A DNA stretch of 64,000 nt from the NCBI GenBank assembly GCA_030390025.1, contig CM059428.1, forward strand, positions 19,902,001 through 19,966,000. Direction: 5' to 3'. The position numbers and the translations under genes are program-made. Shown one piece after another: positions 1 to 64,000 of this stretch (the stretch's first letter is position 1; each line of letters opens with the position of its first letter). Origin of the DNA: Squalus acanthias (taxonomy: Eukaryota). The notes under the pieces were generated by a model. The model was not told the DNA's origin and searched no databases. It saw only the letters and a list, made by a program, of their open reading frames with translations.

Positions 1-155
1 TGCACATTTAGTACTAACAAGTGGTTGTGTCACAACTCTAAAGATCTACCACGCACCAAAGTCCATTGAACCAGCCGTGTGTACAGTTAGTATGCCATTG
101 TTATAAGTGAGAAGTCGCACAACACCAGGTTATAGTCCAACAGTTTTATTTGAAA

Positions 156-192
156 TCACAAGCTTTCAGAGTGCTGCTCCTTCGTCAGGTGA
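156..192 (-). ncRNA. Mirror copy of the hammerhead motif, stem II weakened
   Basis: Reverse complement reads TCAC-CTGACGAA-GGAGC-AGC-ACTCT-GAAAGCTT-GTGA, with two CpG-type changes in stem II. Confidence 0.65.
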
Positions 193-2342
193 AGTGAAGA
201 GATGTATATCGGCACAGCATATATAGTCAGAGAACACTGCCAGACGATTACAGTTAATCTTTCTAACTGCCCTTTATCACACCTCGGCAGAGAGACAATC
301 ACGGCAATCAAAGGTGTGAATGGTGTTCAAACAGGTCAGTCAGGAAAACATTGCATCAAAGACAATGAGGTGGGGTCACAAGGGGTCAAATGTGGCAGAT
401 GCTGGGGTCTGTATAGAAAACAAAAAACTTTTTTTGCTGGAAATCACAGCAGGTCCGGCCGCATCTGTGTAGAGAGAACAAGCCAACGACGACTCGAGTC
501 TGGATGACTCTACGTCAGGTGGGGTTACATGTAGCGTGACATGAACCCAAGATCCCGGTTGAGGCCGTCCTCATGGGTGCGGAACTTGGCTATCGGTTTC
601 TGCTCGATGATTTTGCGTTGTCGTGTGTCTCAAAGGCCGCCTTGGAGAATGCTTACCCGAAGATCGGAGGCTGAATATCCTTGACTGCTGAAGTGTTCCC
701 CGACTGGGAGGGAACACTCCTGCCTGGCGATTGTTGCGCGGTGTCCGTTCATACGTTGTCGCAGTGTCTGCATGGTCTCGCCGATGTACCATGCTCCGGG
801 GCATCCTTTCCTGCAACGTATGAGGTAGACAACGTTGGCCGAGTCACATGAGTATGTACCATGTACCTGGTGGGTGGTGTCCTCACGTGTGATGATGGTA
901 TCTGTGTTGATGATCTGGCATGTCTTGCAGAGGTTGCCATGGCAGGGTTGTGTGGTGTCGTGGACGCTGTTCTCCTGAAAGCTGGGTAATTTGCTGCGAA
1001 CAATGGTCTGTTTGAGGTTAGGCGGCTGTTTGAAGGCGAGTAGTGGAGGCGTGGGGATGGCCTTAGCGAGGTGTTCATCGTCATCGATGACATGTTGAAG
1101 GCTGTGAAGAACATGGCGTAGTTTCTCCGCTCCGGGGAAGTACTGGACGACGTAGGGTACTCTGTTGGTTGTGTCCCGTGTTCGTCTTCTGAGGAGGTCT
1201 ATGCGATTTTCCGCTGTGGCCCGTCGGAACTGTCGATCGATGAGTCGAGCATCATATCCGAGTCGAGTCTAGCGGGATATGACTCTCGACTTGTCGATCG
1301 ACAGTTCCGACGGGCCACAGCGGAAAATCGCATAGACCTCCTCAGAAGACGAACACGGGACACAACCAACAGAGTACCCTACGTCGTCCAGTACTTCCCC
1401 GGAGCGGAGAAACTACACCATGTTCTTCGCAGCCTTCAACATGTCATCAATGACGACGAACACCTCGCTAAGGCCATCCCCGCGCCTCCACTACTCGCCT
1501 TCAAACAGCCGCCTAACCTCAAACAGACCATTGTTCGCAGCAAATTACCCAGCTTTCAGGAGAACAGCGTCCACAACACCACACAACCCTGCCACGGCAA
1601 CCTCTGCAAGACACGCCAGATCATCAACACAGATACCATCATCACACGTGAGGACACCACCCACCAGGTACATGGTATATATTCATGTGACTCGGCCAAC
1701 GTTGTCTACCTCATACGTTGCAGGAAAGGATGCCTCGGAGCATGGTACATCGGCAAGACCATGCAGACACTGCGACAACGTATGAACGGACACCGCGCAA
1801 CAATCGCCAGGCAGGAATGTCCCTCCCAGTCGGGGAACACTTCAGCAGTCAAGGACATTCAGCCTCCGATCTTCGGGTAAGCGTTCTCCAAGGCGGCCTT
1901 CGAGACACACGACAACGCAAAATCGTCGAGCAGAAACTGATAGCCAAGTTCCGTAACCCATGAGGACGGCCTCAACCGGGATCTTGGGTTCATGTCACGC
2001 TACATGTAACCCCACCTGACATAGAGTCATCCAGACTCGAGTCGTCGTTGGCTTGTTCTCTCTACACAGATGCGGCCGGACCTGCTGTGATTTCCAGCAA
2101 AAAAAGTTTTTTGTTTTCCATACAGACCCCAGCATCTGCCACAATTGACCCCTTGTGACCCCACCTCATTGTCTTTGATGTAATATTTTCCTGACTGACC
2201 TGTTTGAACACCATTCACACCTTTGATTGCCGTGATTGTCTCTCTGCCGAGGTGTGATAAAGGGCACTTAGAAAGATTAACTGTAATTGTCTGGCAGTGT
2301 TCTCCTGACTATATATGCTGTGCCTATATGCATCTCTTCACT

Positions 2343-2379
2343 TCACCTGACGAAGGAGCAGCGCTCCGAAAGCTTGTGA
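2343..2379 (+). ncRNA. Minimal type I hammerhead ribozyme motif in the Penelope 3' region
   Basis: TCAC-CTGACGA-A-GGAGC(AGC)GCTCC-GAAA-GCTT-GTGA: core CUGAnGA/GAAA, 5-bp stem II, stem I TCAC/GTGA and palindromic AAGCTT stem III, the layout described for PLE-associated hammerheads. Confidence 0.8.
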
Positions 2380-2892
2380 TTTCAAATAAAGCTGTTGGAC
2401 TCTAACCTGGTGTTGTGCGACTTCTCACATTTGTCCACCCCAGTCCAACACCGGCATCTCCACATCATTGTTATAAGTGAGAGTGTAGATGGAATTGTGC
2501 CAGATACACTTTAAGATGGAAAAATGACCAATAGGGAAGGGTTAAAAATTGAAATATATATAATGCTCAGTTTGAGACCTGCATTTATGTAGTGAAAATT
2601 AAAGCAGGATATGTTATAGGGTGACTTAAGTAATTGAGAGTCCAATGGCTTTTTCAATTTAATTTACTTGCTTTAGTTGAGTGACTTTTGTCTGTTCTCA
2701 GCTAATTGAAGTGACTAAGGATAATTCACAACTGTTATTTTGAAAACTTAAACTTTTTATTGTACCAGGATTTTCATTTTGATCTATTAACTAGTTCATT
2801 GTTTTTCATATACAATCTATTCCTGATAATTCAATGTTTCTGCACTTGAAACATTGACTTAAAAAAAATGGACTTATCTGAAAATTGGAATT

Positions 2893-5121: not shown

Positions 5122-5166
5122 GATGGCTCGTATCTGGCAGAATTTCTGTTGGAAAAGGGCTATGAG
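5122..5166 (+). CDS. GMDS: GDP-mannose 4,6-dehydratase, coding exon (exon 2 equivalent, 45 nt)
   Basis: Polypyrimidine tract + AG, then DGSYLAEFLLEKGYE, then GTGAGA donor; phase 0/0. Confidence 0.96.
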
Positions 5167-14136: not shown

Positions 14137-14224
14137 GTGCATGGCATTGTACGTCGATCCAGTTCTTTCAACACTGGGCGTATTGAGCATTTGTACAAGA
14201 ATCCTCGCACACACATGGAAGGGA
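14137..14224 (+). CDS. GMDS: GMDS coding exon (exon 3 equivalent, 88 nt)
   Basis: ttcttctcAG, then [29 protein letters not shown]+A, then GTAAGT; phase 0/1. Confidence 0.97.
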
Positions 14225-15728: not shown

Positions 15729-15838
15729 ATATGAAGCTGCACTATGGGGACCTCACTGACAGCACGTGCCTAGTAAAGATCATCAACGAAGTGAAGCCCA
15801 CTGAAATCTATAACCTGGGTGCACAGAGCCATGTTAAG
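15729..15838 (+). CDS. GMDS: GMDS coding exon (exon 4 equivalent, 110 nt)
   Basis: tttacAG, then (N)[36 protein letters not shown], then GTAAGT; phase 1/0, compatible with the previous exon. Confidence 0.98.
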
Positions 15839-57152: not shown

Positions 57153-58309
57153 AAACATAGAAAAAAAAATAGGAGCAGGAGTAGGCCATTCAGCCCTTCG
57201 AGCCTGCTCCGCCATTCAATATGATCATGGCTGATCCTCTATCTCAATGGCCCAGAAATTGATCTCGCTCTGTTCCCGCGGGGGTAAGCCTTCCCCGCGA
57301 TGTCTCACCTCGCTTATGCTTTTTCTGATCCAGCTCGCACGAACTTGATGTTCCAGACATCAGCTGTGCTGGGCTTGCGTATCCCAGCGGCGTAGTGAAT
57401 TCGTGCGAGCTGTGGGATCACGTGACTCAGTTAGAGCCAATGGCAGCACACCATCTTCCATTCATAAGTCTCACAGCATGGCTGTGAGACTTATGAATCT
57501 TACACCCCCCCAAAATAACAGCTAAACCTCAATTAAATTAAAAAAAAAACCCATCACATTAATAAAATAAGTATAGTTAATTAAATTAACCATTTTAAAT
57601 AAAAAATTAAATTTTTGAAAAAATTTAAAATCTTTTAAAAAGTTATAAAAATAAACTTACCTGTCTTTAAAGTCTATAAAAAAGATATACCTGTAAAAAA
57701 AAAAATTCAAAAAAATACTTAATTCACTACTTACCTTCTTAAAAGCGGGTCTTACTCCTCCTTTTTACATTTCCAAAATCTTCCCTACTTACCTGCGCGT
57801 CCAAAGCATGAAGTGCACAGCGTGCGCGCAGCCTGTAGCGCGCACGCGATGCACCCAGGCCCCGCCCCCTTTTCGGAAGAGCAATTGCCGGTTTTCAGCG
57901 CATGCGCAGGGCATGCAGAAAACCGGCAATTGGAGTGGGAATACGCGAGAGTACGCAGTGCGTACTCTCGCGTCCCGGGATCAATTTTCGGCCCAATATC
58001 ATATTCCCGCTCTCTCCCCATACCCCTCGATGCCTTTTGCATCTGGAAATCTATCTATCTCCTTCTTAAATATGTTCAGTGGCTTGGCCTCCACAGCCTT
58101 CTGTGGTAGAGAATTCCACAGGTTCATCCTACCCCGTATCCTGAGACTGTGACCCCTCATTCTCGCACCCCCCCCAGCCAGGGGAAACATCCTCCCTGCA
58201 TCCAGTTTGTCTAGCCCTGTCAGAATTTTATACGTTTCAATGAGATCCCCTCTCATTCTTCTAAACTCTAGTGAATACAGGCCTAGTCGACCCAATCTCG
58301 CCTCATACG
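57153..58309 (-). mobile_element. CR1 3' fragment (middle layer)
   Basis: YEARLGRLGLYSLEFRRMRGDLIETYKIL on the minus strand; 3' UTR at 57153-57248. Confidence 0.88.
57249..57994. mobile_element. Harbinger-type MITE (inner layer)
   Basis: TIRs GGCCCAGAAATTGATC / GATCAATTTTCGGCCC; perfect AAT TSD. Confidence 0.88.
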
Positions 58310-59924: not shown

Positions 59925-60652
59925 GGCCCGTAATTTCCGATGGGAGGCTTCCTGCGTGCAGGTGCCTCCTATCGGAAAAAAATCTACACACTTACCTGAG
60001 GGCTCCCGAGGTCCGGACACTTCCGATGCTGGGCCCTCTCAACAGTCGAAATGCGCCGGGCCCACGTATCCCAGGGGCGCATGCGGTTCGCAAGCGTCCC
60101 TGGGATCACGTGGGCCAGGCAAGCCAATGAAAGAAGGGAATCTCCCTTCATACTTTTGACAGATAGACCTGTCAAAAGTATGAATGGGGATCATTGAAAA
60201 AAGACACAAAAACATTAAATAAATTTTAAAAAAGCCACCACGTTTTTAAAATGAGTTAAAATTACATTAAATTAAATTAAATATTTTAAAAGTTTTTTAA
60301 GGAGCTAAAAATAAACTTACCTTTTTTAAAAGTATTTTAAAATTATAAATGAGTGGGGGAAAAAAATATTTTTTGTTACTTTTTTAAACTCTTATGCTGG
60401 TAAAACCTGCTTTTACCAGGCGTAAGATTTCTAAGGGTTTTTAGCGGGCAGAGGTTCTGCAGAAAGCGGAACTCTCCCCCCGCAGAGGCCCTTCTCCAGG
60501 GCAGGCGTCCGAACTGTCTAGAGGATTCTTGACAGATCGGAAATGCCGGTTTTCAGCACGTGCGCTTCGCATGCCTGAAACCGGCATTTCCGATGTCCCT
60601 ACGGGTGTGTACACAGCTCGTACACACCCGTAGGCATCGGAAAATACGGGCC
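59925..60652. mobile_element. Harbinger-type MITE
   Basis: 17-bp TIRs GGCCCGTAATTTCCGAT / ATCGGAAAATACGGGCC; same internal layout as 57249-57994; TSD degenerate (GTT/AAT). Confidence 0.85.
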
Positions 60653-60817: not shown

Positions 60818-61015
60818 TACTTTCTGTGTTTAAAACCTTACTTTCTGTGTTTAAAACCTTACTTCCAGCTGACACTATTTTGTCACACTTTTGCATAATT
60901 AAATAGGTAGTTTGCATTATAAATTGTGCACATAGGAATTTATAATAGGGAAGTTGATGTAAAAGTGTGACAACTGGAAGTAAGGTTTTAAAGACAGGAA
61001 GTGTGTGCATTTCTA
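60818..61015. repeat. Imperfect palindrome with an internal 21-bp tandem duplication
   Basis: AAAACCTTACTTCCAG / CTGGAAGTAAGGTTTT and TTGTCACACTTTT / AAAAGTGTGACAA; (TACTTTCTGTGTTTAAAACCT)x2. Confidence 0.7.
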
Positions 61016-61561
61016 ATATAGTACTGTCGATCTCCTGTGGTTTTTTTCACCCAGCGATTCAAAACCAAGTGGAGACTTTAGGTGGAGTGCCTTGGGATGT
61101 TTTACTACGTTAAAGGCGCTATATAAATACAAGTTGTTGTTGTTGTTGGAGCAGGGTTTGAAGGCGGGCGGAGAGTTCCGCTTTCTGCAGAACCTCCGCC
61201 CACTGAAAACCCTGAGAAATCTTACGCCTGGTAAAAGCAGGCGTAAGGCCTGCTTTTACCAGCATAAGAGCTTAAAAGTACAAAAAATAATTTTTTTTCA
61301 CTCATTTGTAATATAGAAATGCACACACTTCCTGTCTATAAAACCTTACTTCCAGTTGTCACACTTTTACATCAACTTTCCTATTATAAATTCCTATGTG
61401 TTGTTGTTTTTGGAGCAGGGTTTGAAGGCAAGGGATCATTGTTTTGGGGCATTCAGATATGATTCAGTTCCCATTTTAAATCCATGCATTCTGTCCTCCT
61501 TGTTTTTATATTACCATTATACGTTTCTGTGTCCACATTTATAATGGAAGTTACTTAGGTG

Positions 61562-63735: not shown

Positions 63736-64000
63736 GGGCTGGATTTTGCCAATGGGGAGCTTTTGGAGGGGGGACTCCCACTTGTCGGGTTTCAGTCCCA
63801 CCTCCATCAACCTCAGGTCAACCCACGCTATTTTCCCTTGATTGACCTTGTTAAGCCCAACCAGGGGGCTCAGCAGGCCAATTAAGGGAAAGCCAGTTAC
63901 AGAGAACGTCAACGTATGACGTTTCATCTGTCAAAAATTTTTGACAGATGAATTGTCATCGTTTGACAGCTCTGTGAAGCTGTCAAACACTGACATTCTC
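63736..64000. mobile_element. Left end of another Harbinger-type MITE (runs off the window)
   Basis: Begins GGGCTGGATTTTGC, the same TIR as at 11808 and 27909. Confidence 0.65.

Follow-up and report, generated by a model that had tools for sequence, protein, structure and literature searches.

A head-to-head pair of decayed, 5'-truncated PLE copies, most likely laid down in one insertion, in a GMDS intron of Squalus acanthias

The window analysed here, a stretch of 64,000 nucleotides of Squalus acanthias DNA, carries two inverted arms, each a shortened copy of a Penelope-like element (PLE), that align over 1155 columns with 39 differences (96.6% identity), namely 30 transitions, 6 transversions and 3 one-base indels. 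Four of the mismatches fall within the 19 bp adjoining the centre. The arms lie upstream of three exons of GMDS, and the features run as follows:

96-112, plus strand: target-site duplication, left copy, 17 bp, the final 6 nt of which (107-112) also complement the tail-less 3' end of the element
107-1259, minus strand: left arm (1153 nt), a 5'-truncated PLE copy without tail, with an ORF remnant (1259-525) and a stop codon at 630-632
156-192, minus strand: the left arm's hammerhead-like motif, substituted twice in stem II (at 168 and 172)
1260-1274, no strand assigned: spacer of 15 nt, a locally templated insertion, in which 1260-1267 repeats 1242-1249 and 1265-1274 matches 1242-1251 at 8/10 positions
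1275-2428, plus strand: right arm (1154 nt), a 5'-truncated PLE copy, with an ORF remnant (1275-2009) and then a 3' untranslated/pLTR region
1275-2009, plus strand: ORF remnant of the right arm, with a damaged C-x4-C-x2-C linker, a GIY-YIG endonuclease, and indels near 1820 and at 1954
2343-2379, plus strand: minimal type-I hammerhead-like motif, with core letters, a 4-bp stem I, a 5-bp stem II and a palindromic stem III region
2429-2465, plus strand: one-sided tail of 37 nt (40 nt if the family 3' end, position 2468, is taken as its limit), by which the right arm extends beyond the left
2466-2482, plus strand: target-site duplication, right copy, at whose first base (exactly 2466) the alignment of a contig from a related species starts
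5122-5166, plus strand: first GMDS exon in the window, with AG/GT ends, 2.6 kb downstream of the insertion
14137-14224, plus strand: next GMDS exon, with AG/GT ends
15729-15838, plus strand: third GMDS exon, with AG/GT ends, 36/36 residues identical to human GMDS residues 81-116

The two copies of the 17-bp repeat are exact, and the window holds no third. The spacer is likewise single-copy in the window, even with 3 mismatches tolerated, and a BLAST comparison of the element against the 64-kb window found no further copy of it. The right arm carries a frameshifting indel near 1820 and further ones at 1954 and 2304, all of them private to that arm by comparison with contigs of the family. The first-pass annotation had described this layout, and our analysis confirms it in each respect: near-identical inverted arms of about 1153 bp around a 15-nt spacer, a single 17-bp direct repeat around the whole unit, a 37-nt tail on the right arm alone, and a stop in the left arm and a frameshift in the right. 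Its remark that the arms had persisted long enough to diverge is borne out by their 3.4% divergence.

We located the three GMDS exons by GMDS motifs and then checked the third against solved structures. Their position on the plus strand downstream of the arms agrees with the earlier placement of the insertion inside a GMDS intron. The exon at 5122-5166 is presumably GMDS exon 2 by human numbering, and a motif of exon 1 was absent from the window in any frame; as exon 1 lies outside the window, the insertion site is probably intron 1. There is no indication of a host function for the insertion. Within the flank, two sequencing runs of the same species (X2 and X3, from two studies) both differ from the window at positions 2692, 2861 and 2905, so that either neither run carries the haplotype of the window or the window contains errors there. 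Further along, the segment 60334-61400 contains inverted repeats, 60334-60483 with 61164-61320 (81%) and 60929-61015 with 61314-61400 (98%), along with internal palindromes, and resembles a nest of miniature inverted-repeat elements. Short palindromes of 31-90 nt at 57460-57973 and 63894-63982 probably derive from DNA-transposon-like repeats.

Each arm corresponds to the last ~245 codons of an ORF of about 880 residues plus the 3' region, and has no RT core. The arm peptide is 92% identical to the C-terminal part of its full-length relative P0001 (91% for the left arm) and 59% identical to that of P0009, both of which contain Pfam RVT_1, and its closest proteins come from sharks. It can be aligned to the GIY-YIG domain that Pfam assigns to P0037 (E 4e-13); a Pfam search with the arm peptides alone gave no match. 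The top 8 matches of a fold search were all GIY-YIG nucleases, but none reached E<=0.001, and a profile search of solved structures returned weak matches only, T4 endonuclease II among them (E 0.039). The left arm retains a CCHH motif (VVYLIRCRKGCPGAWYIG followed by two histidines) and the linker C-x4-C-x2-C, which reads PCHGNLCKTC both there and in P0005. The same linker occurs in P0001-P0004 and P0006, and its third cysteine is gone from the right arm. Judged by these relatives and motifs, the element is an endonuclease-bearing PLE that encodes RT together with a GIY-YIG domain, the latter C-terminal, in one ORF, the RT being missing from the truncated copy. A CX2-5CxxC linker is described as a trait of Neptune and Nematis that is missing from Penelope/Poseidon in the account of PMC8557442. 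Since the linker precedes the GIY-YIG domain, we provisionally call the element Neptune-type, a label under which the motif alone does not separate Neptune from Nematis. A Penelope/Poseidon label was discarded, the linker being present in the element and absent from that clade.

The family to which the arms belong is very abundant, with a summed contig depth about 10^5-fold over that of the flank, a value that is not a copy number. Its 3' end lies at 2468, behind which 126 contigs of X2 and 104 of X3 leave the element. No metagenome contig matched a 30-nt pattern of the tail exactly. Pieces of the PLE ORF were also seen in annotated shark host proteins (P0007, P0010, P0019, P0028-P0033, P0035 and P0036), probably as a result of gene-model read-through into insertions.

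The motif at 2343-2379 has the hammerhead core letters and stems I and II, and fits the description of a minimal hammerhead given in PMC6765202. Its fold, with a z of -1.44 and 17/200 shuffles as good, is not significant. Rfam returned no hammerhead match; its 3 matches were under the gathering score, and 2 of them came from the hairpin itself. A second, degenerate hammerhead-like hairpin, with a CTGA start and a 5-bp stem, was noticed just past the ORF stop at 2013-2046 (plus strand) and in its left-arm mirror; its fold is not significant.

Head-to-head is the most frequent arrangement of PLEs, with palindromes at the junction (PMC3846280), an inverted 5'-truncated copy often adjoins a PLE (PMC8557442), and the large inverted repeats of PLEs vary in size (PMC2377424). 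Inverted pLTRs and short 3' extensions are listed among PLE peculiarities (PMC8969392), and the present insertion has both an inverted 5'-truncated copy and a one-sided tail of 30-40 bp. In two of three related metagenome loci (L001 and L003), coding DNA flanks both sides of the head-to-head junction, the arms being offset by 224 nt in L001 and by ~1 kb in L003; the comparison covers L001-L003, as L004-L006 matched over only 19-32 residues and were left out. In L003 (1-702) we also noted that the junction falls at ~166-185 and that the inverted copy begins far upstream, in the RT region. Given these loci and the accounts in PMC3846280, PMC8557442 and PMC2377424, the first-pass view that it is unusual for the inversion to include coding sequence finds no support. 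Among the family contigs, 4 of the 15 listed joints (of 64) connect opposite strands, with offsets of 91-510 nt and head/tail polarity not given; such counts have to be read with the difficulty that short contigs have in containing symmetric joints. The layout is thus a known PLE habit, and near-exact symmetry alone is unusual. What is distinctive is that both arms stop at one nucleotide and that the arm end served as the source of the spacer. Among the largely open-access article texts searched, none dealt with exactly symmetric palindromes of PLEs in sharks, and a 2026 preprint on retrozymes had nothing relevant under the terms searched.

A structure of this kind must be distinguished from an artefact. 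Substitutions between the arms affect 20/142 CpG columns as against 16/1010 other columns. At 16 tabulated differing sites the family majority base is found in the left arm at 15/16 and in the right arm at 1/16, a lean that is expected from a table made up of departures from the right arm. This comparison draws on 29 of the 35 element rows listed, with 131 more in the table; the six rows left out (1382, 1569, 1661, 2025, 2077 and 2181) are those in which the other letter is a minority in the species. It shows that the tabulated arm differences are mutations of one arm relative to the family. X2 and X3 each provide one 587-nt contig that runs from 2446 across the right junction, with 20 letters on the element (tail) side as compared with a 31-letter threshold for bridging. 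The contig support from independent runs concerns the right junction only; the centre of the palindrome is spanned by none of the contig pieces listed, which is uninformative either way.

In a relative, organism C, a 649-nt contig aligns from 2466 only, with 167 unlike letters ahead of that position, and in another, organism D, a contig aligns from 2469. Organism C thus offers a probable empty site, the alignment being known from 2466 onward. In the empty-site comparison proposed in the first-pass annotation, it is on the right side that the contig aligns as an empty site would. Taken together, an assembly artefact is unlikely: CpG decay proceeded separately in each arm, the right junction is present in contigs from two studies and the contig of a relative resembles the empty site; these grounds are internal to the sequence rather than drawn from reads.

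Both arms begin at the same base of the element. They share bases at 1323, 1532, 1570 and 2207 that each account for <=7% of the family depth in X2 and X3, 6 states that are typical of the family in this species and unlike both relatives, and 3 older states that have been lost from most copies in the species. The rarity of the four shared bases is overstated, because contigs drop rare variants and the residue that the 1570 state encodes recurs in P0001 and P0005. To judge from these comparisons, the four bases fit one common template. The exact target duplication around the whole unit, the shared rare bases and the same truncation point uphold the earlier proposal of a single insertion, and the two copies were most likely laid down in that one event.

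The flank differs from organism C at 20/481 letters and from organism D at 14/388, as compared with a difference of 1.6% between the arms at non-CpG positions, for which reason the insertion appears younger than the splits from C and D. A mutation rate of 7e-10 per generation is reported for the epaulette shark (PMC10587355). With this rate, borrowed from another species, 0.8% per arm corresponds to a rough age of ~11 million generations (6-57 million across the interval given for the rate).

The junctions are informative in their detail. The spacer starts with the 8-mer GAGTCGAG (1260-1267), which repeats 1242-1249, 18 nt back. One of the two mismatches between its last 10 nt and 1242-1251 is a CpG-decay site, at which the spacer agrees with the right arm, and the final 2 nt of the spacer could be element-derived. 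A match to the arm ends as good as this was reached by 170/20000 shuffled spacers and by 32/2186 15-mers of the element, and the claim that the spacer was copied from the arm end accordingly stands, as a locally templated insertion. The left junction has 6 nt of microhomology (107-112, complementary to element positions 2423-2428) and the right junction has 3 nt: the family contigs leave behind 2468, so that the right duplication opens with 3 nt that double as element end. Among the 24 loose-end rows listed (1836 more exist), family ends did not cluster around the tail-less site (~2428), a point against the two-strand priming proposed below. In both X2 and X3 the family 3' end is followed by an AT-rich majority sequence similar to the target at 2469-2482, a hint of target preference, at an agreement of just 0.37-0.38. 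A second template as the source of the 4 central mismatches was rejected, as CpG decay accounts for 3 of them; at one of the codons concerned, both residue states occur in P0001 and P0005.

We consider it rather probable that the locus is a decayed, 5'-truncated head-to-head pair of Neptune-type copies that arose in one insertion with both nicked strands priming, probably on the same broken RNA. In the proposed order of events, the endonuclease of the element would nick two strands 17 nt apart, after which one 3' end would prime at the end of the RNA tail with 3 nt of pairing and the other ~40 nt further in with 6 nt of pairing. The tail would be confined to one arm because the priming sites differ by ~40 nt. 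Both copies would run to the same 5' end of the template, and the ends would be joined once slippage had added a 15-nt copy of the arm end, either by the RT or by polymerase-theta-type end joining. The arms would have decayed neutrally since the insertion. A PLE from the anole cuts and extends both strands in vitro, is predicted to act as a dimer and uses two start sites that bracket the tail (PMC11167929), and templated insertions are a known signature of joined ends, described for polymerase theta (PMC9962433). The restart at the other arm's exact last base would fit a jump onto a free 3' end. Joints with offsets of 91-510 nt, 224 nt and ~1 kb elsewhere are as predicted if two copies stop independently. 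As a counterpoint to a shared template, each of the four shared bases is surrounded by a long stretch of identity and could stem from later conversion. We tentatively entertain, at a clearly lower level of confidence, a fuller version in which the symmetric copies and the templated spacer reflect two RTs working on one RNA from both nicked strands, with the arms later exchanging tracts of ~100 bp by gene conversion.

The strongest competitor, which we regard as possible but doubtful, is a cDNA primed at the tail end that added the spacer, snapped back, copied itself nearly to its start and joined the second strand via the 6-nt microhomology found at the left junction. It accounts directly for the symmetry and the shared bases; on the bottom strand, moreover, the spacer reproduces the arm's first bases in sense orientation, which is what snap-back synthesis gives (PMC9962433), and self-priming, on an antisense template, has been proposed for inverted PLE junctions (PMC3846280). 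However, it does not explain why synthesis should resume precisely where the first arm ends, with 1-2 nt of pairing at most, the offset of ~40 nt agrees with the pair of RT start sites observed in vitro (PMC11167929), and the 0.2-1 kb offsets of related junctions are large for snap-back loops.

Alternatively, the symmetry and spacer might have been made secondarily, by breakage and end joining at the centre, and the shared rare bases by gene conversion between the arms. Closely spaced inverted repeats do stall forks and break (PMC7999016), and the identical tracts that contain the four shared rare bases measure 123, 92, 92 and 81 nt (p 0.02-0.04, post hoc). Yet that test, besides being post hoc, was made on 29 of the 35 element rows listed, with 131 more, the longest identical tract is ordinary (p 0.40), mismatches are still present beside the centre, and private variants of a source copy account for the shared bases with no need for conversion; we therefore hold such remodelling to be improbable.

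A fold-back formed during assembly or library preparation is very unlikely: such structures are difficult for short-read assemblies (PMC8557442) and independent-read support does not take in the centre and the left junction, but the 39 arm differences show a CpG-decay pattern in both arms, and an artefact would leave no target duplication, one-sided tail or non-inverted unique flanks. Two independent insertions in opposite orientation at one site, although the family is very abundant, are largely excluded and the least likely account of all, given the single target duplication with none between the arms, the same truncation point and the shared rare bases.

The plus strand of 96-2482 is predicted to form 1132 pairs between the arms, and its longest uninterrupted helix has 140 bp. 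This hairpin is predicted because the arms are inverted repeats, and the fold by itself shows no biology. If transcribed as modelled, GMDS pre-mRNA would form a long hairpin, as would any with an intronic inverted repeat. RNA editing has already been reported for lizard Penelope repeats (PMC5625713), and these, like the palindromic Harbinger of a frog described in the same study, resemble the GMDS locus in having a long, near-perfect predicted dsRNA within a transcript. They differ in that the edited lizard and frog repeats were seen in RNA, the GMDS hairpin being a prediction. The first-pass annotation had also suggested that the DNA could extrude a cruciform. Such structures begin to extrude from the centre, and spacers and mismatches work against this (PMC7999016); we judge a cruciform at the locus today to be unlikely because of the 15-nt spacer and the 4 mismatches in the adjoining 19 bp. 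A hairpin in single-stranded DNA is possible. Inverted Alus with a 12-bp spacer are described as stalling replication forks (PMC7999016); here, a 1.15-kb inverted repeat with a 15-nt spacer has persisted in the intron of a conserved gene up to 3.4% divergence.

As a single locus, a decayed insertion of a described type carries little weight. It is, nevertheless, a clean specimen, in which the target duplication, both priming microhomologies, the tail, the templated spacer and a probable empty site can all be read. How PLEs form inverted copies is still undefined in the literature according to PMC8557442. If the reading with two RTs on one RNA and later conversion is true, shark genomes, where the family is abundant and decay is slow, would hold enough junctions to settle the matter by counting.

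Priming from both strands has a precedent outside PLEs. In LINE-1 twin priming both target strands prime cDNA, giving an inverted segment. The LINE-1 segments come from different parts of the RNA, whereas both copies in the GMDS intron cover the same 1.15 kb.

A closer parallel is PAc, the Poseidon element of Anolis carolinensis (PMC11167929), which is alike in its two 3' ends bracketing the tail, in its AT-rich target and in a hammerhead, a candidate one in the present element, just upstream of the start sites. PAc belongs to the other clade, Penelope/Poseidon without the linker motif, so that its biochemistry does not come from a Neptune-type element, and its in vitro priming as described there proceeds without target homology, in contrast to the 3 and 6 nt of microhomology at the GMDS locus. 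With the Neptune and Nematis clades the element shares a C-terminal endonuclease preceded by a CX2-5CxxC linker, in its own case C-x4-C-x2-C. Canonical endonuclease-bearing PLEs (PMC8557442, PMC3846280, PMC2377424) resemble it in their head-to-head copies, one-sided tail and variable target duplication, as well as in a C-terminal GIY-YIG domain with CCHH and a hammerhead-like motif near the 3' end. The texts of these accounts describe inverted pLTRs or inverted repeats of variable size, and their figures and supplements may show symmetric cases. In the GMDS intron, by comparison, the two copies are cut at the same nucleotide of the ORF and the whole insert is one palindrome.
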